Shown here: positions 3,149 through 57,373 of the stretch, piece by piece | How the letters are laid out: each line of letters starts with the position of its first letter | Numbering within the stretch: position 1 is the stretch's first letter | Origin: Alphaproteobacteria bacterium | GTDB taxonomy: Bacteria; Pseudomonadota; Alphaproteobacteria; Rs-D84 | NCBI GenBank assembly: GCA_017503725.1 | Contig: JAFVSL010000005.1 | Location: 15,455 to 79,454 of the forward strand | Reading direction: 5' to 3' | DNA: 64,000 bases | The notes under the pieces: model-generated | Database searches by the model: none | Seen by the model: only the letters and a program-made list of their open reading frames with translations | Told to the model about the DNA's origin: nothing | Position numbers and translations under genes: made by a program

Positions 3149-3628
3149 TTAGTTGTTCATTGCACACGGTTCGGTAAATTCATATGTGCCGGGTGCGTCT
3201 GTAAATGATACGCCCGCCGGCGCGTACATTATGCAATCCCCCGCGGGATTTGATACCAAACACGATTCTGCCACCCCCACAGATACCATTCCAGACGGGC
3301 ACGTCGTCGCAATTGTGATTTGCGGTTCATCAATCGCAATATACCCCGATGGGCAATCTGTGGCGGGGCCATTATCCAAAACACACACACCGGCATCGCA
3401 TTTTAACCCACTGGCACAGGGTGGCACACCGGTGTAAACCGTCAGTGTGCTACTGGTACAGGTCTGGCCCAGTGTTGCCGCCGCCACACAGGTTGCCATT
3501 GATAGACCACTCGTTCGCAAACATACCCCAGAATCACATTGCGTACTGTATAAACAACTTTGACCATTTGCGAGCCCTGCAATCGCGGGTAACGGCATCA
3601 GTATAAACAAAAACATAATTCGTTTCAT
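3149..3628 (-). CDS. Family-A secreted Cys-rich protein, copy A1. Conserved C-terminal block CPSGYIAIDEPQITIATTCPSG...AESCLVS.PAG.CIMYAPAGVSFTD.PGTYEFTEPCAM.
   Basis: Signal peptide MKRIMFLFILMPLPAIAG. RBS AAGGTG. Paralogous to the ORFs at 24884..25156 and 34633..35118. Confidence 0.65.
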   Translation of the reverse strand: MKRIMFLFILMPLPAIAGLANGQSCLYSTQCDSGVCLRTSGLSMATCVAAATLGQTCTSSTLTVYTGVPPCASGLKCDAGVCVLDNGPATDCPSGYIAIDEPQITIATTCPSGMVSVGVAESCLVSNPAGDCIMYAPAGVSFTDAPGTYEFTEPCAMNN

Positions 3629-3637
3629 AGCAACACC

Positions 3638-4045
3638 TTAGTTGGACACAGTTGTAAACAGTGCGGACCGGAATTCGGCATCATCTCTAACAAGCTCTGC
3701 ACAAGCGAGTGAACAATTAGTAGCGCAAATGTAATCGTCATTGTCTTCAAAATTAGAGCTGAACCAGGATGAGACCGCTGGGCTAATCATACGACACCAG
3801 CAATAGTAACCTCCGCCATAATTTAAAAGTGTGTCTGATGTTTCTTTTACTGCCCCGGACGTACCAGTGCACAGTCCAATTCCTTTTATAGTTATATTGG
3901 AAGATTTTAGCGTCCATTCTGAATACTCGTAATCGTCGATATAAAAGTCGTTGTTATTCTCTGATAGCGCGACGCATCGTTGTACGGCCGTCGCGGGTGC
4001 GGCGAGTATCGCGCCAACCGCGGTTAAAGTTAAAAGTTTTTTCAT
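3638..4045 (-). CDS. Family-B secreted Cys-rich protein, copy B1. Signal peptide MKKLLTLTAVGAILAAPATA. Conserved YYCWCRM..P..SSW motif and C-terminal Cys framework.
   Basis: Start taken at the internal ATG 4045 with RBS AAGGAG 7 nt upstream. The six-frame ORF extends to 4093. Paralogs at 24412, 35566, 16461 and 15967. Confidence 0.65.
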   Translation of the reverse strand: MKKLLTLTAVGAILAAPATAVQRCVALSENNNDFYIDDYEYSEWTLKSSNITIKGIGLCTGTSGAVKETSDTLLNYGGGYYCWCRMISPAVSSWFSSNFEDNDDYICATNCSLACAELVRDDAEFRSALFTTVSN

Positions 4046-4205
4046 TTGTTCAATCTCCTTTCTTTGTTTTATTCGCGAAAAAACAAAAACCACCGAATAA
4101 ATTCAAGTGGTCAGGAGGTTAACGACAATCTAATAGAATTGTGCTGTTTATTCAATATATTCACAGCCCCCCTGACTTTTATATTCAGGAGTTGTCTTAT
4201 TCGAT
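4046..4205 (-). promoter_or_regulatory. Conserved ~150-nt 5' leader of the B/A cassette, copy L1. Mutually exclusive pairings CTCCTGA / GTCAGGRGG / CCTCCTGAC, a downstream hairpin plus T-run, then the RBS.
   Basis: Highly similar sequence sits upstream of B2 (24262-24411), B3 (35567-35722) and B4 (16486-16625), always in the same orientation relative to the gene. Confidence 0.6.
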
Positions 4206-13925: not shown

Positions 13926-14276
13926 ATGTTGGCATTTACAAACGCAAAAGAAAAACAATCACCGACCATTATTGGCGCGGGTTGCAAATTAACCGGTGAC
14001 ATAAAAACAGATCACAGTGTCCAAATTCACGGCGAAATTATCGGCGATGTAACAGCCGATGTGGTCGTTATTGGTCGCGGTGGCAGTGTCCAGGGCAAGG
14101 TGACGGCATCACACCTGTTCTTGCACGGGACATTGGATGGTCCGGCAACCGTAAACACGGCAAATATTTTCAGTGCTGCCCAAATGACCGGCGTGCTGTC
14201 TTATCATACATTGAACATCACCGGCAACACGGGTCTGGAATGCAAATTATCGAAACGAAAGGACAAGGCAAAATGA
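13926..14276 (+). CDS. Bactofilin family cytoskeletal protein (DUF583)
   Basis: Repeated beta-helical pattern I.G...G.I......I.G.V.G.V typical of bactofilins. Lies 5 nt downstream of the M23 gene. Confidence 0.7.
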   Translation: MLAFTNAKEKQSPTIIGAGCKLTGDIKTDHSVQIHGEIIGDVTADVVVIGRGGSVQGKVTASHLFLHGTLDGPATVNTANIFSAAQMTGVLSYHTLNITGNTGLECKLSKRKDKAK

Positions 14277-14719
14277 ACAAAAACGTATCAAAAGTATTTA
14301 TCGCGGCCGATCATCGTGGCGTTGGATTAAAATTATACTTGATTGAAATGTTGGCGGCGGCGGGCTATAACGTTGTAAATTTGGGCGTTGACGATCCAAA
14401 CACATCCGCCGATTATCCAGACGTTGCCGCAACCCTGGCCGATGCAATGGAAAGCGATGAAAAATCACGTGGCATCATTATTTGTGGCACGGGCGCGGGC
14501 ATAATGATTGCGGCAAACCGTTACCGCCATATTCGTGCATCACGTTGTGAACGCCCAGACCAGGCGCGCGACGATCGTTTTCACGACGACACAAATGTTT
14601 TGGCATTGGCGGCCGACGACATTGATATTGAAATGGCGTTCTTGTGTGTTCAGGCATTTTTAGAAAGCCCATTTGATGCCGTTGAACGTCGCATCCGCCG
14701 AATTGAAAAAATTTCGTAA
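14273..14719 (+). CDS. rpiB: Ribose-5-phosphate isomerase B of the RpiB/LacAB family
   Basis: IICGTGAGIMIAANRYRHIRA active-site region. About 148 aa. Start at ATG 14273 with RBS AAGGACAAGG. Confidence 0.75.
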   Translation: MNKNVSKVFIAADHRGVGLKLYLIEMLAAAGYNVVNLGVDDPNTSADYPDVAATLADAMESDEKSRGIIICGTGAGIMIAANRYRHIRASRCERPDQARDDRFHDDTNVLALAADDIDIEMAFLCVQAFLESPFDAVERRIRRIEKIS

Positions 14720-14729
14720 AGGATAAAAA

Positions 14730-15185
14730 GTGGAAAAACCAGTCAAACTATCACTAGAACAAGTGTACAATGCTTGCCATCGCTTTATTTGGCACATGGA
14801 CAGCAAGGTAAAAATTGTCCACACCCCAACAGAACGCAGATATATAATCTCGAACTATGATGTCTGGGAGGGCAGTCGTGGGATTTTATACATCTGCATT
14901 CCGCACTATGTGGCCAAAAGCCCCCAGAATCAAACCGGACACATTTTATTCTGTTACAATGGAGCTACGCCAAGATGGATTGCTGCAACACATCACAATA
15001 TTGCACATGCGATGGATGAATCTGCATCAAAACTAACTAAATTGTTGGGCCGTTACCGCGAACCAGTGTTTTTTGATTTAGTGGACAGTGCCGACAAACG
15101 CCCCCTGTATGATCGAGGCCACCCAGGCCTTGGTCGCGGAAGCCAATACCATTTTGTTCGTGATCTTTATCAAAAACAAAAATAA
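14730..15185 (+). CDS. Hypothetical protein with a GTG start
   Basis: ORF of 151 aa followed by a hairpin terminator at 15186-15215. No recognisable motifs. Confidence 0.45.
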   Translation: MEKPVKLSLEQVYNACHRFIWHMDSKVKIVHTPTERRYIISNYDVWEGSRGILYICIPHYVAKSPQNQTGHILFCYNGATPRWIAATHHNIAHAMDESASKLTKLLGRYREPVFFDLVDSADKRPLYDRGHPGLGRGSQYHFVRDLYQKQK

Positions 15186-34632: not shown

Positions 34633-35118
34633 TTATGACATTGGACACGCACCTGTAAATTCATACGTGCCTAGTGTGTCTGTAAATGATACGCCCGCCG
34701 GCGCATACATTATACACGACCCCGCGGGACTGGATACCAAACACGATTCCGCCGTACCAATGGCGGTTGTGCCACTGGGGCAATTGGTCGCGATGGTGAT
34801 TTGTTCTTCATTTATTGCAATGTAACCTGATGGACAGGTATCTATTGCATTACAAAGACCGTTTTGACATATCAAACCACTGGCACAAGGTTTTTCCGTA
34901 TCAAGATAATAACCTATATCTCCTACTTTTGTTCTACAGGATTCTCCAAGGACGGCGGGCGCTGCACAATACCTCAATAATTCGCCACTTTTTTGTGAAC
35001 ATACCAGCGATGCGCAATCTCTGTTCGCTATGCACTGTTCACCATTGGCCAGTTCGCCTTGTGCAGCCGCATACGCGACAATCGGTACAAGCATCAATAA
35101 AAATATCAATCGTTTCAT
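34633..35118 (-). CDS. Family-A secreted Cys-rich protein, copy A3
   Basis: Start at ATG 35118 (MKRLIFLLMLVPIVAYA) with RBS AAGGGG. Carries the conserved block CPSGYIAINEEQITIATNCPSG. Confidence 0.65.
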   Translation of the reverse strand: MKRLIFLLMLVPIVAYAAAQGELANGEQCIANRDCASLVCSQKSGELLRYCAAPAVLGESCRTKVGDIGYYLDTEKPCASGLICQNGLCNAIDTCPSGYIAINEEQITIATNCPSGTTAIGTAESCLVSSPAGSCIMYAPAGVSFTDTLGTYEFTGACPMS

Positions 35119-35128
35119 TCGCACCCCC

Positions 35129-35566
35129 TTAATTGGCCAATGAACCAAACAGCGCGGACCGGCACTCGGAAACGCTCTGGGCGTAGTACGCACAGCTGTA
35201 CGAACAGGAGTACACGCAAAAACTGGCGGACGAAACCGCGCCGAGATACACCCAAGACGACACGGCCGGCTCGACCATTTTGCACCAGCAATATTTATTG
35301 GTCGTATCCGATGAGTCGCTTACCGTTGTAATTGCATCCGATGTGCCATATGTTGCGTCCGCTTTTTGATTTGAGCACATCGCAATTCCCTTAATCGGGA
35401 CACTGGTACCATTCGTTGTACACGTCGCGGACCAATCCGCATTCCCCGCCGTCGGTGTCGATGTACATGTCGTGCTTGATGCGTCCAGCGCCACGCATTT
35501 CTGGACGGCGGTGGCGGGTGTGGCGAGTATCGCACCAATCGCGGTTATTGTTAAAAGTTTTTTCAT
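35129..35566 (-). CDS. Family-B secreted Cys-rich protein, copy B3 (NKYCWCKMVEPAVSSW)
   Basis: Signal peptide MKKLLTITAIGAILATPATA. RBS AAAGGGAG. Confidence 0.65.
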   Translation of the reverse strand: MKKLLTITAIGAILATPATAVQKCVALDASSTTCTSTPTAGNADWSATCTTNGTSVPIKGIAMCSNQKADATYGTSDAITTVSDSSDTTNKYCWCKMVEPAVSSWVYLGAVSSASFCVYSCSYSCAYYAQSVSECRSALFGSLAN

Positions 35567-35722: not shown

Positions 35723-35959
35723 TGTCATTTGGATTTCATACGAAAAAACACGCCATATGGCGCGCCCGGTTCAGGATCTTTCGTTGTTTTATCCAGACGC
35801 CTTATATCGGGTTACTACACCCCATTACAACCATCGGTTATAACAAACAAATTATAACCAAATATTTCATCAAACGCAACGACGAAGATAAATAATTATG
35901 TATTCCTCCACTAACCACTTACACTAATCACTAAAAAATCCCGCCGAATGGCGGGATTT

Positions 35960-36619
35960 TTATCCACGGAACCCCAGTGCAACAATAAACATTTCCACAC
36001 TGTCCTTGCGTGACGATGGTGGCTTGATATGATGCACAGATTCAAATTTTTCTTTGATTTGTTTTAATAAATCATTTGTTGTTCCGCCGGTAAAGGACTT
36101 ACACACAAACGTACCACCCGGCTTTAATGCACGTAACGCAAAATCAAACGCATATTCCAATAAAACCATCTGACGAATATGATCTGTCTTTTTATGTCCA
36201 ACCGTATTCGGCGCCATATCAGATACAATCACATCCGCGGTTCCATTACCAATCTGGTCTGGTTGCAAGCCCAACTTTTCTTCCAGCCAGCGCAATGCCG
36301 CATCAGATGTAAAATCGCCCTGATATGTTTCCACACCGACAATTGGCGATATTTCCAGCAAATCCATCGCAAAAACTTTCGATTTCGGATACGTCCGCGC
36401 AATATATTGCGACCACGAACCCGGTGCCGCACCCAAATCAACAACAACCTGACCATTGCGCAAGAATTTAAACTTCTCGTTCATCTCAATCAGTTTATAT
36501 GCCGCACGTGCGCGATAGCCATCCTTTTGTGCGCGTGCGACATACGGATCCGCCGCCTGGCGTTGCAGCCACGCGACCGACGATTTCTTTGCCGCAATTT
36601 TCTTATTTGTTATTTTCAT
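35960..36619 (-). CDS. rlmE: 23S rRNA (uridine2552-2'-O)-methyltransferase
   Basis: FtsJ motifs (VVDLGAAPGSWSQY, DVIVSDMAPN). About 219 aa. Confidence 0.85.
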   Translation of the reverse strand: MKITNKKIAAKKSSVAWLQRQAADPYVARAQKDGYRARAAYKLIEMNEKFKFLRNGQVVVDLGAAPGSWSQYIARTYPKSKVFAMDLLEISPIVGVETYQGDFTSDAALRWLEEKLGLQPDQIGNGTADVIVSDMAPNTVGHKKTDHIRQMVLLEYAFDFALRALKPGGTFVCKSFTGGTTNDLLKQIKEKFESVHHIKPPSSRKDSVEMFIVALGFRG

Positions 36620-37137
36620 TATCGTGTACGATTCTGCTCTTTGATACGACGCTTGTGCGCATTGTATGCCTCCATAGCAGCCGCCTGGGGACTTACATAT
36701 GTTGTATACATACGTTCATCATCGGCGCTATAAAATTCTGTATCCTTGCCGTGATGCTTATAGGTCACAACAACATTATACCCGATAACACGCCCATTTT
36801 CTATGACCTCGCGCGGGGATTCAACAGATGTCACATCCCAATTAAAAATATGCCGCCAATCTGTTTTCAGTCTCTGCGCCTTTATTCTTTCACGTTCTTG
36901 CTGTTTTCCCATTTTACGCAGATGTTCCTTGTACGATGCCTGGGCCGCATCTTTGGGGCCAACCCACACCTTGTACAAACGCGGATCATCTAAACTATAA
37001 AACTCCACATCTTGACCGTGATACTTATATTCCACGACAACCCGATATCCAACGGTCTTGCCATCTCGCACAACTGCCTCTGGGGCTTTAAGTGCGACAA
37101 TATCCCAGTCCAATATATGCTTCCAATCTATTTTCAT
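36619..37137 (-). CDS. Hypothetical protein made of two tandem copies of an ~85-aa module (W.D.....P.EV...G...GY.VVV.YK.HG.D.EFYS.DD.R.Y)
   Basis: Internal repeat seen by eye. Start taken at the ATG 37137 (MKIDWKHIL), 1 nt after the upstream gene's TAG. The six-frame ORF extends to 37260. Confidence 0.5.
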   Translation of the reverse strand: MKIDWKHILDWDIVALKAPEAVVRDGKTVGYRVVVEYKYHGQDVEFYSLDDPRLYKVWVGPKDAAQASYKEHLRKMGKQQERERIKAQRLKTDWRHIFNWDVTSVESPREVIENGRVIGYNVVVTYKHHGKDTEFYSADDERMYTTYVSPQAAAMEAYNAHKRRIKEQNRTR

Positions 37138-37138
37138 A

Positions 37139-37411
37139 CTATCTACCTTTAATTTTTTGTTGTTTTTCACGATAGAAGTCGAACGCCATTTTTCGTGCCT
37201 TGGCACGTGTAACCATACATAACTTCTCTTCATCATCTGCGAACAGGTATTTCCGTTCACCGTGATATTTATAGTTTACCGTAACCTCGTATCCCAAAAG
37301 AACGTGCCCCTTATCACGATAATCACGATAAACCTCGACCGGTGCAGACACCGCAACCGGTGTCCAATCAAACCAAGTTTTTACATCATTTACAATACCA
37401 CGCAAACCCAT
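37139..37411 (-). CDS. Hypothetical single-module protein of 90 aa, with the same ~85-aa module as the downstream gene
   Basis: VKTWFDWTPVAVSAPVEVYRDYRDKGHVLLGYEVTVNYKYHGERKYLFADDEEKLC aligns with both repeats of the 36619..37137 protein. Confidence 0.5.
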   Translation of the reverse strand: MGLRGIVNDVKTWFDWTPVAVSAPVEVYRDYRDKGHVLLGYEVTVNYKYHGERKYLFADDEEKLCMVTRAKARKMAFDFYREKQQKIKGR

Positions 37412-37412
37412 T

Positions 37413-37910
37413 TTAATTTACCCCCTGTGGTTTTGGGCCAGGTTGCTGTTGCATACGTGCCATAACCGCTTCCATACCACCCATACGCTGAATCATTGCC
37501 ATTTGTTGTTTCATTTTTGTGTATTGCTTAATCATATGTTCAACATCACGTACGGTGCAACCTGCTGTCTCGGCAATACGTGCCTTGGCATTGGCGAAAA
37601 CTTTTTCTGGATTTGCGCGTTCTTCGGCGGTCATCGCTTCCAAGATTTTAATTTGCGCATCGACACTGCCGTCTTTGATTTTTTCTTTCATTGCACCAAC
37701 GGCATCTTTCATACCCGGCACCATTTTCAACAGACCGCTAAAATTGCTCATTTTCTTAATCTGCTTTAACTGCGCCAGCATATCATTCATATCAAATTGA
37801 CCCGACATCATACGCTCGGCCGTTTCGCGCATACCAGATGGTATTTTTTCCGCCACCGCTTCGTTTTCTACAACATTTTCTTGTTTTTTCTTTTTACCAA
37901 AGCCAAACAT
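37413..37910 (-). CDS. Standalone SRP54 (Ffh) M-domain-like protein of 165 aa, with no NG/GTPase domain
   Basis: Aligns by eye to the Ffh linker and M-domain (FD.ND.L.QL.Q.KKM..........PGM ... AEERA.PE ... A.ARIAE.AG..V.DV..M.KQY..M). Strong RBS AAGGAG 7 nt upstream of the ATG. The upstream neighbour is uvrA. Confidence 0.65.
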   Translation of the reverse strand: MFGFGKKKKQENVVENEAVAEKIPSGMRETAERMMSGQFDMNDMLAQLKQIKKMSNFSGLLKMVPGMKDAVGAMKEKIKDGSVDAQIKILEAMTAEERANPEKVFANAKARIAETAGCTVRDVEHMIKQYTKMKQQMAMIQRMGGMEAVMARMQQQPGPKPQGVN

Positions 37911-37951
37911 TTCTACTCCTTTTAATGTTTTCTATTTTATTGTCTTTTTAT

Positions 37952-40786
37952 CTATTTGTCCAGATACTTCTTTAAATATTTCCCGGTCTGCGATTCGGAT
38001 ACATTTACAATATCTTCGGGCGTACCGGTTGCGATGACCCGACCGCCATTTGAGCCACCGGTTGGCCCTAAATCTATAATCCAGTCTGCGGTCTTAATCA
38101 CTTCCAGATTATGTTCGATAACGATAACCGTATTCCCTTGTTCGACCAATTCGTGTAACACAGACAACAACATCTTGATATCTTCAAAATGCAATCCCGT
38201 TGTTGGTTCGTCCAAGATATAAATTGTTTGCCCCGTACTGCGTGCGGCTAATTCTTTGGATAATTTTATACGCTGGGCCTCGCCCCCGGACAGGTCCAAC
38301 GAACTTTGCCCCAGTTTGATATAATCCAACCCCACACGCTTTAACAACCCCAATTTGCGGGCAATTTTGGGGACATTGACAAAGAACCGATATGCCTCTT
38401 CGACGGTCATATTCAAGACATCTGCGATTGATTTACCCTTGTACTTTACCGCCAGTGTTTCTTCGTTATAACGCGTCCCGTGACAGCAATCACATTCCAC
38501 ATACACATCGGCCAAGAAATTCATTTCTATCTTAATCTGGCCATCACCCTGACAGGCCTCGCACCGGCCACCTTTGACGTTAAATGAAAAACGCCCCGAC
38601 GTGTATCCACGTGCCTTGGCCTCGGGCAGGCACGCAAAGAAATCACGAATATCGCCAAATACACCGGTATATGTTGCCGGATTACTGCGTGGTGTGCGCC
38701 CAATTGGGGATTGATCGATATCAACCACCTTGTCCACGTTTTCCATACCACGAATAATATCGTGCGCCCCCGTTTCCAGTTTTGAATTGTACAACGCACG
38801 CATCAGCGCCGGATACAACGTATTTAACAGCAATGTCGATTTCCCAGACCCCGACACACCCGTCAGCGCCACAAATTTACCCAACGGAAATTCAACATCT
38901 ATGTTTTTAAGGTTATTCCCACACGCACCCGTCACAACAATTGATTTTCCATTACCCGCGCGACGCTTTTTCGGTACGGCAATTTTACGTTTACCCGATA
39001 AATATTGCCCGGTGATTGAATCTTTGTTTTTTATAACCTGACCGGGGGTCCCGTGCGCAACAACATTTCCACCGTTAATTCCCGCGCCACGTCCAATATC
39101 CACCAAATAATCCGCCGCGCGCATTGCATCTTCGTCGTGTTCGACAACAATGACCGTGTTATCCTTGTCCCGCAGCATTTTCAGCGTTTCCAACAATTTG
39201 TCATTATCCGCCTGGTGCAGACCAATGGATGGTTCATCCAAAACATACAGAACCCCCGACAGACCACTGCCGATTTGTGACGCCAGGCGAATACGCTGGG
39301 CCTCGCCCCCCGACAGGGTGCCCGCCATACGCGACATTGTTAAATACCCCAACCCAACATTTTGCAGGAAATATAATCTGTCTGTAATTTCACGCAAAAC
39401 AATTCGTGCGATTTCATTATCTTTGGTCGACAAATGATTTGGCAAATCACGGAACCATTGCAGGCAATCATCAACCGACATATCACACACATCCATAATG
39501 TCGGCACCATTTATACGCACACATAACGCATGAATATTCAAGCGCTTGCCGTGACACACCGGACACGGTTTTTCAGACTGATATCGCGCCAGATCGCTAC
39601 GTACCGCCTCTGAATCCGATTCGCGCCACCGGCGTTCCAGATTTGGAATAACCCCTTCGAACGGCTTTTCGTACACAAATCCATTCCAGTTAATTTTGAT
39701 TGGTTTATCACCACTGCCGTACAGAATTAAATCTTTTTGTTCCGCCGTCAATGTGTGCCACGGTTTTCCAAGTGGGATTTTGAATGCTTTATGCAAGGCT
39801 TCGAACAAATGCTCATATTGACTAAGCATTCCGCCACGTGACCACGGTGCAATCGCCCCACCCAAAATTGACTTAGATGGATCCGGCACAGCCAAATCCG
39901 GCGACATATTTAATTGCACACCCAACCCGTCACAGTTCTGGCATGCCCCCATCGGCGCATTAAACGAGAACAAGCGTGGCTCAATCTTTGGTACTGTAAA
40001 ACCACTGACCGGACAGGCATAGTTTTGCGAATATAAAATATCTTCATTTGTGTCCAGGCGACGCACCAACACCGACCCCGGCACCAAACGCAAGCCCCCC
40101 TCGAACGATGCATACATACGCGACCGAATTTCTTCTGTTTCGGCATCTGCATCTGGAATTTGTAATCTATCAACAATAACGAAAATATTATGCTTTTTGT
40201 TTTTATCTAATGTCGGCACCGCGGACAAATCAACCAATTCATCATCAATAATCGCGCGCTGATACCCCTGCTTGACCAAGAACGCCAATTCTTTGCGATA
40301 TTCACCCTTACGCTCGCGTACCAGTGGCGCCATAATAAATATTTTTGTACCCGCCGGGATTTTCATTGTCCAATCGACCATTTCCGCAATAGATTGCGAC
40401 TTAATCGGCTTGCCGGTAACGGGTGAATGCGGCACACCAATACGCGCCCACAACAGACGCAGATAATCATAAACCTCGGTCACGGTACCAACGGTAGAGC
40501 GTGGGTTTTTTGACGTTGTTTTCTGTTCAATGGAAATGGCGGGTGACAGCCCCTCAATCAAATCAACGTCTGGCTTTTTCTGCATATCCAGGAACTGACG
40601 TGCATACGACGACAGCGATTCAACATATCTGCGCTGGCCCTCGGCATAAATGGTATTAAATGCCAGCGACGATTTTCCCGACCCAGATACGCCGGTAAAG
40701 ACCACCAATTTATTCTTTGGTATGTCCAGGTCGATATTTTTAAGATTATTTTCGCGTGCACCACGAATTTTTATTACATTTGCCAT
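37952..40786 (-). CDS. uvrA: Excinuclease ABC subunit A
   Basis: Two ABC ATPase modules ([20 protein letters not shown]), zinc fingers. 944 aa. Confidence 0.95.
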
Positions 40787-44479: not shown

Positions 44480-45532
44480 CTACACAATTTCCCAATGACC
44501 GCCACGATCTGGACCGATACGGCGAATTTTCCCGGACTTTTTCAATTTATCCAGATTCCACTTTACACCATCCGGGCTAAGCCCTGTTGCGCTGGCCAAT
44601 TCGGCACGTGTTGCACTTGGATTCTTCGCCAATATATCCAAAATTTTCTGGGCAGTTTTCTGGGTAGTTTTCTGGGTAGTTTTCTGGGTAGTTTTTGCCA
44701 CATTTTCCTTTATCTGCATTTCACGATTATCAAGGCGATTTTTCTCGCCCAATAACAAATTACCAAAGAATTTGTTCAAGTATTCCATCGTGTACGGAAT
44801 ATTCTTTTCCAGATTTTGATAATTCGCACGAACCAGTGCATTTCTGAAATATTTCGCATGCTTTTCAAACATTTCATTGTTTGTATGCAAACCCAACGTA
44901 TCTAAATACTTTATAATAAATACAACTGTCGCGCGAGTATTCCCCTCGCCAAACGGGTGTATTTGCCATATCCCAGACATAAATTTTTCAATATGTTCTA
45001 TGCGTTGGCGTTTGGTTAAACTGCTATAATCAAACTGTTTCTCTTGTGCAAAATCGTATTCCAGCGTTTCAGCAATACTGTCTGCCCGACCATAGACAAC
45101 AGTATCATTGTTCAATATTTCTTCTTTCTTGGTTATATTATATGTGCGGAACTGACCAGCTATTTTTTTATCCAGAACACCATCAAATAAAGCCCCATGA
45201 ATCGATTTATATTCGGCCGGGCTGAATGTAAATGTCTTTTCGCTTAATAATTTCGCAATACGTGCAGATACCTTATCAGCTTCTTGCTCGTCTTGCTCTT
45301 TCTGGGTAGTTGCAGCATTTTCATGATAATAGCGATTTATTTCACGTTCTGCATCATAGACCGATATTTTCCCCTCTATATTATCTTTTGCAATATCAAT
45401 CAGATATTTAGATGGCGTTAAATTATCAACCATCTGCAGACCAATGGCAACACCCCAGTTTTCTGCACGAGTGCGTTTATCCGGTTCGCCTTGCTTTTTA
45501 TATTCACTAAAATACTGCTTTTGTCTTGCCAT
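44480..45532 (-). CDS. Fic/DOC family protein with C-terminal winged-HTH. Contains an in-frame TTQK x4 tandem repeat.
   Basis: Fic motif HPFGEGNTRAT. C-terminal wHTH (ILDILAKNPSATRAELASATGLSPDGVKWNLDKLKKSGKIRRI). Confidence 0.8.
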   Translation of the reverse strand: MARQKQYFSEYKKQGEPDKRTRAENWGVAIGLQMVDNLTPSKYLIDIAKDNIEGKISVYDAEREINRYYHENAATTQKEQDEQEADKVSARIAKLLSEKTFTFSPAEYKSIHGALFDGVLDKKIAGQFRTYNITKKEEILNNDTVVYGRADSIAETLEYDFAQEKQFDYSSLTKRQRIEHIEKFMSGIWQIHPFGEGNTRATVVFIIKYLDTLGLHTNNEMFEKHAKYFRNALVRANYQNLEKNIPYTMEYLNKFFGNLLLGEKNRLDNREMQIKENVAKTTQKTTQKTTQKTAQKILDILAKNPSATRAELASATGLSPDGVKWNLDKLKKSGKIRRIGPDRGGHWEIV

Positions 45533-55955: not shown

Positions 55956-56018
55956 TAGTCTTATTCACTGGACTTGTGCGCTTTTATTATCAATGTTGTG
56001 TGTAACAAAGGACAACAT

Positions 56019-57230
56019 ATGCGGGCACTTAAATGTCAAAAGTTGGTTTTAACAACAGGATTTCTGAACAAACTGAAATCCGACATTGATTTGCAAATAA
56101 CAGATGCAGCACTGCCAGGGCTACAATGCCGGTATTCGGCCGCATCTGGACGCAAAGTGTTCTATTTGGGATATCGCGTTCGCGGTTCATATCAACAAAA
56201 GCATATGAGATTGGGCACATTGGCGGAATTTAGCTTAAATGAGATTCGCGCACGTGCGATACAAACCAAACAAGATATCGCCAACGGTCTGGACCCGCAA
56301 TCAGAACAACGCATACGCATAAAGCAAAACGAAATGGCCGCAGCACGACGTAAACAAGTCCGTGAACTAACCCCAATATTTATGGAAAAACATTGTCGCG
56401 AAAATAATCGGGAAAACACCTATCGCTCAAACGAAACATTGATGCGCCTATATATAATCCCATATCTTGGCGATAAATACATTGCAGATATTGATCTGCG
56501 CACAATCCAGGATATGTACGATAAAATCAAAAACACAAAAACCGTTGCTGTTGGATTGCATGTTATGCGGTTATTATCGACCTTTCTAAATTGGTGTGAA
56601 AAATACAATTATCGCACAATAAATTCGAATCCGTGCCATTTGGTTCAAAAGGCAAAATCCCCAAAGATGAACCATACGATTCTAGATATTGATGGTTATA
56701 AACGTTTATTTACTGCACTGGACGAGGCATTTTGCGCTGGGAAATATGCACCACAAACCATCCTGGCTATTAAAACACTTGCGCTGACGGGCTGTCGCAG
56801 CAGCGAAATAACAAGCCTGGAACGGGACGAATTAGACCTAGAAAACGGGTATCTACGTTTAAATAAACGCAAAACAGATGCATTTAATGTACCGCTGGGC
56901 GATCCAGCAATCGAAGTTATAAAACAGGCATTGAGAATTTGTAAAAGCAAACAGTATGTTTTTCATTCCCCAATTGACCATACACGCCCATTAACCGATT
57001 TACGTAAAGCGTTCTGGTGGGCATTGGATCGTGCTGGATTACCGCGTATGCGAATACACGACCTGCGCCACTCTTTTGCAACACTGGCCACCAGCATGGG
57101 CGAAGATATACGAATATTAAAAGACGTATTGGGACACACAAAAATCACCACAACTGAAATATACGCACACGCATCAAGTATTGCGGCACGCCGCACTGCA
57201 AACAATGTTGCAAGCATGATAACAGGATAA
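56019..57230 (+). CDS. Phage-type tyrosine integrase (P4-like), convergent on tRNA-Arg
   Basis: Catalytic residues in ...GCRSSEITSLERDELDL... HDLRHSFATLA ... TTEIYAH (R, H-x-x-R, Y). RBS AAAGGA upstream of ATG 56019. Confidence 0.85.
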   Translation: MRALKCQKLVLTTGFLNKLKSDIDLQITDAALPGLQCRYSAASGRKVFYLGYRVRGSYQQKHMRLGTLAEFSLNEIRARAIQTKQDIANGLDPQSEQRIRIKQNEMAAARRKQVRELTPIFMEKHCRENNRENTYRSNETLMRLYIIPYLGDKYIADIDLRTIQDMYDKIKNTKTVAVGLHVMRLLSTFLNWCEKYNYRTINSNPCHLVQKAKSPKMNHTILDIDGYKRLFTALDEAFCAGKYAPQTILAIKTLALTGCRSSEITSLERDELDLENGYLRLNKRKTDAFNVPLGDPAIEVIKQALRICKSKQYVFHSPIDHTRPLTDLRKAFWWALDRAGLPRMRIHDLRHSFATLATSMGEDIRILKDVLGHTKITTTEIYAHASSIAARRTANNVASMITG

Positions 57231-57296
57231 ATTGGTGAATACTGGGTCAACAAATAAAAAGAAAATCGGGGTAAACCCGATTTAATTTTTGGCGTG

Positions 57297-57373
57297 CCCA
57301 GCAGGATTCGAACCTGCAACCTATTGCTTAGAAGGCAATTGCTCTATCCGGTTGAGCCATGGGCACAAAACCA
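57297..57373 (-). tRNA. tRNA-Arg (anticodon TCT), CCA encoded. Its 3' end faces the integrase.
   Basis: Reverse complement GTGCCCATGGCTCAACCGGATAGAGCAATTGCCTTCTAAGCAATAGGTTGCAGGTTCGAATCCTGCTGGGCACGCCA folds as a perfect cloverleaf. Confidence 0.85.

Follow-up and report, generated by a model that had tools for sequence, protein, structure and literature searches.

A new family of small basic proteins encoded between an M-domain-only Ffh relative and rlmE in uncultured Alphaproteobacteria

We describe two small genes, A and B, which lie between rlmE and a gene for an Ffh/SRP54 relative reduced to its M domain, and which are new at the level of both protein family and operon architecture—the proteins have no assignable family or superfamily, and the arrangement has no described equivalent. 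This novelty is not extended to a demonstrated mechanism; the mechanism discussed below is a proposal. In the stretch of DNA analyzed here (64 kb in length, hereafter the window), the minus strand carries, in this order, uvrA (40786–37952), the M-domain-only gene (37910–37413), gene A (37411–37139), gene B (37137–36619) and rlmE (36619–35960). The M-domain-only gene encodes 165 aa with neither an N nor a G domain, and residues 38–137 of its product match Pfam SRP_SPB (2.4e-23). Gene A is an open reading frame for a single A-type module (90 aa, pI 9.4), and gene B, an open reading frame with the conserved start MKIDWKH, encodes 172 aa in which two B-type modules, B1 (36868–37137, minus strand) and B2 (36622–36867, minus strand), are fused in frame. 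The last gene of the series, rlmE, encodes the 23S rRNA U2552 2'-O-methyltransferase and was identified by Pfam FtsJ (1.3e-58); against the NCBIfam RlmE models it reached 2.7e-56 and 3.6e-56 (190.5 and 189.7 bits), under the curated cut-offs of 269 and 300. The open reading frames and the sequence itself bore out the coordinates, the strand, the two-gene layout and the TAG-t-ATG junction given in a preliminary description of this DNA.

The junctions within this series are tight. The stop codon of the M-domain gene, TAA, is followed after 1 nt by the ATG of gene A; gene B starts at 37137, with one base between A and B (TAG-t-ATG) and the two genes in different frames; and the TAA of gene B overlaps the ATG of rlmE (TAATG). 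Overlapping or 1-nt junctions with both neighbors point to co-translation as one unit, and M-A-B-rlmE indeed looks like a single, translationally coupled four-gene unit. A sigma-70-like promoter match (TGGACA-17-TAAAAT, 10/12; 37934–37962, minus strand) sits just upstream of the M-domain gene and overlaps the end of uvrA; it is a consensus match only, and the count of sigma-70-like sites in the region does not rise above the shuffled expectation. Approximately 190 nt 3' of rlmE, a hairpin followed by a T-run (35746–35767, minus strand), again a consensus match only, resembles an intrinsic terminator and is a possible terminator of the M-A-B-rlmE transcription unit.

Genes A and B together hold three copies of one module. 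A family HMM searched against the six-frame translation of the whole window recovered exactly three copies (E 9e-44, 2e-18 and 3e-21), the next best match having an E value of 0.29, and BLASTP related B1 to B2 at 47–48% identity (E 3e-33), A to B1 at 39% (E 2e-9) and A to B2 at 29% (E 6e-10). Both searches agree with the three modules of the preliminary description, and its figure of about 40% identity between copies is a fair average of the 29–48% observed. A repeat search at the DNA level located a conserved 39-nt core encoding GY.V.V.YK.HG in gene A (37256–37294), B1 (37012–37050) and B2 (36745–36783), with 69–72% identity among the three copies and spacings of 267 and 244 nt. The modules as a whole are 43–59% identical pairwise at the nucleotide level and their synonymous sites are saturated, with a dS of 2.4 between B1 and B2 and none that could be computed for A/B—hence, the duplications are old and not the product of slippage, and a recent slippage-type tandem repeat is ruled out by these two measures.

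The proposal of one old duplication under selection held as regards age and selection, but two duplications of different age were found, the A/B split being the older and the B1/B2 split the younger. Across the sequences compared, the A/B split is older than all relatives sampled, and the B1/B2 split arose within one sub-group only. In a neighbor-joining tree of B modules, built without bootstrap support values, B1 and B2 fall into separate groups, and the single-module B proteins of L010, L001, L014 and L006 are B1-like while those of L011 and P0113 are B2-like. This grouping indicates that the window's third module most likely stems from one duplication within an Enterousia sub-group, followed by fusion in some lines, whereas other lines lost one copy or the other. 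Since a B with one module is the rule among relatives, the gene B of the window appears to be a lineage-specific B1-B2 duplication and fusion. The three-module picture is therefore correct for the window but not as an ancestral state, which is a single-module A plus a single-module B, and the comparison replaces it by a pair of A and B in which the copy number of B varies.

With only one base between A and B and a change of frame, the two genes could in principle be fragments of one three-repeat gene split by a frameshift error in the sequencing, or even non-coding repeats—a possibility that the preliminary description had itself raised for the split. The window is near-identical to the MAG SUUO01000003.1 (locus L009; 98% for A, 99% for uvrA), and this independent assembly displays the same A/B1B2 layout and an identical split at 93–98% amino acid identity. 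Moreover, A and B are separate genes in more than 20 other, independent assemblies, where each gene keeps its own conserved N-terminus and the junctions vary, with spacers of 1, 2 or 16 nt or an overlap of 4 nt. The separation of A and B in L009 and the other relatives refutes the frameshift alternative. The rates of evolution and confident structure predictions (see below) argue in the same direction, and we give an artefact of either kind practically no credence. Compared with the closest relatives, L009, L010 and L011, for which dS is unsaturated, dN/dS was 0.07–0.10 for gene A and 0.11–0.16 for the B modules, as against 0.02–0.05 for uvrA, the M-domain gene and rlmE. At non-synonymous sites, A and B evolve 3–8 times faster than the M-domain protein, and in more distant relatives identity drops to 47% for A and 39% for B, while it stays at 88% for uvrA, 83% for rlmE and 82% for the M-domain protein. 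Genes A and B are truly coding, are under purifying selection and evolve several times faster than their neighbors; the selection inferred in the preliminary description is thus seen in dN/dS values of 0.07–0.16 against orthologues.

To delimit the family, an exhaustive HMMER profile search was run on 1.84 billion representative proteins, and 99 clusters were found at E <= 0.001. A few clusters at the weak end look spurious, among them proteins of 3076 and 477 aa that match over short stretches; the remaining ones measure 48–233 aa, mostly 80–105 aa. In sequence searches, gene A has 28 close homologues, all of approximately 90 aa, and the two-module B only 3 clusters. All named source records are MAGs of an uncultured Alphaproteobacteria bacterium or of Candidatus Enterousia, the samples behind them come from chicken, ruminant and human gut, and the members carry the NCBI label 'hypothetical protein'. 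Candidatus Enterousia is a genus of the uncultured order Rs-D84; its genomes are, as a rule, smaller than 1 Mb, and it has been proposed to live as an obligate symbiont or parasite (PMC12306168). The module was described beforehand as unrecognized, and no curated-threshold match arose in Pfam-A 2025, NCBIfam 20.0, PHROGs v4, PADLOC 2.0 or PDB sequences—gene A had no match at all in these five collections, and gene B only sub-threshold noise. Likewise, no Pfam family recurred among 77 aligned members at E values up to 5, and no description of the family or the operon was found in the databases and literature searched. One candidate that was tried and rejected is Cas4 PREFRAN (TIGR04328 / PDLC00945), for which gene B had E values of 1e-4 to 4e-4 but 20.6 bits against a 70-bit cut-off; B1 alone scored 13.4 bits and was the sole match among 25 modules.

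The genomic setting of the family is as constant as its sequences are variable. The order uvrA, SRP_SPB-only gene, module gene(s) and rlmE occurs in every locus with enough flank (L001–L021, L023 and L025), so the Ffh-M and rlmE context, whose conservation had been in question, is kept wherever both flanks are readable. Where contigs were shorter, as in L022 and L032, the gene directly upstream of a divergent member is again the M-domain gene, and on the short contig L033, which has a very divergent member, another module gene lies upstream. Modules and M-domain-only gene were found together at every locus, never one without the other. The number of modules per locus varies from 1 to 3, with at least two in most loci. 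The commonest arrangement is A plus a single-module B; A plus B1-B2 is found in the window, L009 and L013; in-frame A-B fusions occur at the same locus in P0082 (L021), P0083 and P0106 (L025); P0100 (L023) is a B-B fusion without a separate A; and L015 has A alone, which implies that B is dispensable in that species. None of the 99 clusters contained a fusion of the M domain with A or with B.

The wider order dus - rodZ - uvrA - M - A - B - rlmE - rnhA - tkt - ygjP - hisS is, at the same time, equally conserved, and synteny alone consequently discriminates weakly. These data leave room for a fast-evolving, lineage-specific family whose function is unrelated to that of its neighbors and whose position is merely kept by a frozen gene order in reduced genomes: the order from dus to hisS is just as conserved as the core of the locus, the module number is not fixed, and A and B change much faster than every neighbor. 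Such a passive arrangement does not readily account for the overlapping or 1-nt junctions on both sides, for the joint occurrence of the modules and an unusual M-domain-only gene in all loci or for the purifying selection that keeps A and B in genomes smaller than 1 Mb, and we judge it somewhat unlikely, if still deserving serious attention.

Structure prediction with AlphaFold2, based on a 77-sequence family alignment, gave a confident model for gene A (pLDDT 89, pTM 0.73). The predicted module fold is a helix, four antiparallel strands and a long basic C-terminal helix; in gene A, these elements correspond to a helix at residues 3–14, strands at 18–21, 25–31, 35–47 and 51–58, and a helix at 69–88. 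The model of the two-module B had a pLDDT of 93.1 and a pTM of 0.61, a value that leaves the relative position of the two modules without a confident prediction and that should be read with the shallow alignment of the first half in mind—MAFFT had placed all single-module sequences on one half, leaving only ~5–8 rows for the first. In this model, the C-terminal helix of B1 is continuous with the N-terminal helix of B2 (residues 61–97), linking the two β-meanders. The shared sequence pattern and the basic helical tail of the earlier description proved correct: the β core is slightly acidic (−1 to −3), and the C-terminal helix and tail are strongly basic (+4 to +6.5). Over 147 single-module members, the pI has a median of 9.6. 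The residues common to A, B1 and B2 (W16, P24, G40, Y41, V43, V45, Y47, H50, G51, D60, A76 and Y80) are mostly hydrophobic or aromatic ones that alternate along the long strand or line one side of the helix, and look like core positions. The outward-facing positions of the long central strand differ between A, B1 and B2, and this lack of conservation on the solvent-facing side speaks against sequence-specific nucleic-acid recognition by the sheet. Conserved loops are specific to each type—FDWTPV, Y.D.G.VLLGYEV and DEEKL in A; W..IF.W.I..V and E.LW..Y..P..AA in B—as would fit non-redundant roles of A and B.

A Foldseek search, a check suggested at the outset for a single module and run here on the PDB, returned nothing better than E 0.6. 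Two dsRBDs and the chloroplast 30S factor chain 5x8r_y were among these hits, and the structural likeness to nucleic-acid-binding folds is no stronger than that to enolase N-terminal or PH-like domains. The PH-like fold, a seven-stranded closed β-sandwich with a C-terminal helix cap, was rejected since the module does not have this architecture. Two further candidates concern DNA binding. The P4-type integrase encoded in the window itself has an arm-type DNA-binding domain with which the module HMM aligns from end to end (10.9 bits, with 0 of 2000 shuffles scoring higher; hhalign probability 19%); a scan of viral contigs turned up no relatives of this enzyme. Against a profile of five phage integrase arm domains (PF13356, Arm-DNA-bind_3 / DUF4102), the probability dropped to 2%, and the match was rejected as evidence of homology. 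The AP2/ERF family (PF00847) was rejected by sequence as well: hhalign gave 0.1–0.4% against an alignment of 4 plant AP2 domains, no Pfam AP2 match was seen in the 77 members at E values up to 5, and Foldseek did not recover the fold. Given these negative profile tests and the Foldseek result, the resemblance to AP2 is taken to describe a shape, a core of sheet plus helix, and not family membership.

The same tests weigh on the idea that A and B are small DNA-binding proteins with an AP2- or integrase-arm-like fold, serving as nucleoid-associated proteins or operon regulators that are mechanistically unconnected with the M-domain protein and with RlmE. The basic nature of the proteins, the tandem or dimeric modules that DNA binders typically have, the upstream position of uvrA and the weak match to the window's integrase arm domain would sit well with such a role. 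AP2 domains have conserved Arg/Trp positions, whereas the exposed main-strand positions of the modules are variable; adding the probabilities of 2% for the five arm domains and below 1% for the four plant AP2 domains, the lack of any member with a Pfam AP2 or Arm-DNA-bind match at E values up to 5 and the empty Foldseek result, we consider a DNA-binding role unlikely. The family may nonetheless prove to be a mundane peripheral nucleic-acid binder, an ordinary protein of its lineage.

The upstream partner offers a different lead. Among PDB sequences it is closest to the E. coli Ffh M domain (3e-15), and it also matches the Tetrahymena mL105 chain 6z1p_AT (E 2.5e-4). The domain is nearly invariant across 17 loci, and the canonical RNA-binding motif, GSRKRRIAAGSG in E. 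coli, reads ANAK(A/T)RIAETAG in the M-domain paralogue. Neither ffh nor an SRP RNA was found within the 64-kb window. The proteins encoded by A and B could be SRP-type accessories that act on the M-domain protein only and do not bind the ribosome—replacing the NG domain or the SRP RNA scaffold, or regulating signal-peptide binding, in the manner of YlxM. The departure from GSRKRRIAAGSG suggests that the partner of the M domain may have changed, the modules always lie immediately downstream of its gene and are translationally coupled to it, and the strongly conserved A-type loops could contact an invariant partner. Set against this are the absence of M-A and M-B fusions from the 99 clusters, the strong difference in evolutionary rate between M and A/B and the lack of sequence similarity to YlxM or any SRP component; an accessory role confined to the M-domain protein hence appears improbable.

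The reading that we favor, though tentatively and with considerable doubt, sees A and B as paralogous subunits that form a small, basic, lineage-specific complex and work on the large ribosomal subunit together with the M-domain protein. The exit tunnel is where the Ffh M domain docks, and RlmE methylates U2552 of 23S rRNA late in 50S assembly, such that both operon partners point to the large subunit; the natural A-B fusions provide Rosetta-stone evidence that A and B act together as a heteromer. Each module would be a four-stranded β-meander packed on a long C-terminal helix with a Lys/Arg-rich tail at its end, and an A-type and a B-type module would pair as a pseudo-dimer—extended, in the window, by the extra fused B copy to a unit of three modules. 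Translational coupling would ensure stoichiometric production with the M-domain protein and RlmE. On the large ribosomal subunit, the complex could serve as an accessory or anchor that seats the M-domain protein at the exit tunnel or, alternatively, as an rRNA-binding assembly or peripheral ribosomal protein, with the basic helices supplying non-specific RNA contacts. Of this proposal, the A-B pairing, any binding of the M-domain protein or rRNA and the placement on the ribosome are inferred. A functional link with the ribosome or with protein targeting is probable; physical association with the ribosome may be suggested on circumstantial grounds, namely the rlmE/M-domain operon, the basic pI and the mL105 precedent.

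Several observations favor a ribosomal complex of this kind: synteny, the tight junctions, the fusions, the basic charge, the type-specific motifs, the mL105 precedent and purifying selection in genomes smaller than 1 Mb. Other observations count against it. Gene neighborhood is its main argument, and uvrA, a DNA repair gene, is just as constantly adjacent; B is missing in L015; a near-invariant M-domain protein next to fast-evolving A and B is unexpected for a tight, extensive interface; and nucleic-acid-binding folds are no better structural matches than enolase N-terminal or PH-like domains. A bolder version, which we regard as quite improbable, would make the M-domain paralogue and A/B a GTPase-independent device stationed permanently at the ribosome exit tunnel, handling nascent chains or membrane targeting—a free-standing bacterial counterpart of MAP67/mL105, conceivably related to it by descent, in which A and B would count as new ribosomal proteins specific to this lineage and the co-transcribed RlmE would tie their loading to late 50S maturation.

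At the least, what is now labelled 'hypothetical' can be set down as a new family that comprises two sub-types, has a confidently predicted fold and is diagnosed by its locus; the module search recommended in the preliminary description led to 99 clusters and a conserved neighborhood. If the neighborhood reflects function, these are undescribed small proteins working with a GTPase-less M domain and a 23S rRNA methyltransferase in an alphaproteobacterial order whose genomes are smaller than 1 Mb. A bacterial M-domain operon with two dedicated partners would also be a tractable, recombinantly testable model of an M domain without its GTPase, and specialists in SRP and the ribosome would find a bacterial M-domain-only protein with two dedicated small partners surprising.

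To our knowledge, M-domain-only Ffh relatives have so far been known as mitochondrial proteins (MAP67/mL105). In the Tetrahymena mitoribosome, these relatives sit at the tunnel exit (PMC7326499, PMC8321541), with mL105 as a constitutive large-subunit partner (PMC7326499). The likeness concerns the neighboring M-domain gene and the proposed system, not the module: MAP67/mL105 is an Ffh M domain without N and G domains, as is the window's M-domain protein, but the latter is bacterial and much closer to bacterial Ffh M domains (3e-15). No A/B-like partner has been described for MAP67, and ribosome binding is a property of mL105 that is only proposed for the window's protein. As for the modules themselves, dsRBDs and the pY/HPF hibernation factors belong to a similar topology class, with a helix, an antiparallel sheet and a second helix. 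AP2/ERF domains combine a three-stranded sheet with a helix; the predicted module differs from them by an additional N-terminal helix, a fourth strand and an insert of ~10 residues before the helix, and also in that its exposed sheet residues vary. These domains, including the AP2-fold proteins that apicomplexan mitoribosomes have recruited (PDB 6sy0, 9i05 and 9g6k), count among the closest known systems. YlxM (UPF0122) is a small protein encoded beside ffh in Firmicutes and a reported accessory of the SRP pathway. As a small protein in one operon with an Ffh-type gene, it sets a precedent for operon-encoded small SRP accessories, although its helical, HTH-like fold is unlike that of the module and there is no sequence similarity (no Pfam match) between the two. 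YlxM, moreover, accompanies full-length Ffh, whereas the modules of the window accompany an M-domain-only protein.

Two extreme variants of the module locus are found among the equivalent loci of related genomes. In L015 (4001-4932), the single-module A-type gene is the only module gene present, and rlmE starts at its stop codon. In L023 (4001-4528), on the other hand, one gene encodes two B-like modules and the A-type gene is missing. These two loci serve as natural 'deletions', useful for finding which module is essential.

Two ORFs on the minus strand, encoding 186 aa (34633-35193) and 145 aa (35129-35566), lie between rlmE and rnhA in the window. Both products combine signal-peptide-like N-termini with a high content of Cys, Thr and Ser; neither has a match in Pfam. 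When each ORF is called from its first start codon, the two overlap by 65 nt; the real start of the 186-aa ORF may therefore lie further inside the called frame. In the near-identical MAG (L009), the rlmE-rnhA gap (~1.3 kb) is similar in size to that of the window. In L010 and L001, as in most of the remaining relatives, rlmE is directly followed by rnhA. The ORF pair has the look of an insertion confined to the species and encoding secreted or surface proteins.

Elsewhere in the window, a P4-type tyrosine integrase (55974-57230, plus strand) with Arm-DNA-bind_3, SAM-like and catalytic domains adjoins a tRNA gene (57293-57366, minus strand), and together they probably mark the border of an integrated element. 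The closest relative of this integrase in the phage database, from Aeromonas phage ST4, shares only 31% identity. A 350-aa Fic/DOC-domain protein with a winged-helix domain at its C-terminal end is encoded at 44480-45532 (minus strand). We also observed two pairs of neighbouring ORFs, each of 159 aa plus 151 aa, at 3149-4093 (minus strand) and 14240-15185 (plus strand); judging by their equal lengths and opposite strands, they may be a two-gene unit that was duplicated in inverted orientation.

The Ffh M-domain-only gene (37413-37910, minus strand) has an equivalent in the related loci L001-L025, which come from genomes under 1 Mb; neither SRP RNA nor ffh was found within the 64-kb window. Across the 17 loci compared, the encoded protein is nearly invariant, with an unchanging N-terminus (MFGFGKKK) and variation confined to a linker of ~25 residues. 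The conserved part also includes the motif ANAK(A/T)RIAETAGCTVRDVEH, where E. coli has GSRKRRIAAGSGMQVQDVNR, and the protein weakly matches mL105 (6z1p_AT; E 2.5e-4), an M-domain-only Ffh relative at the tunnel exit of the Tetrahymena mitoribosome.
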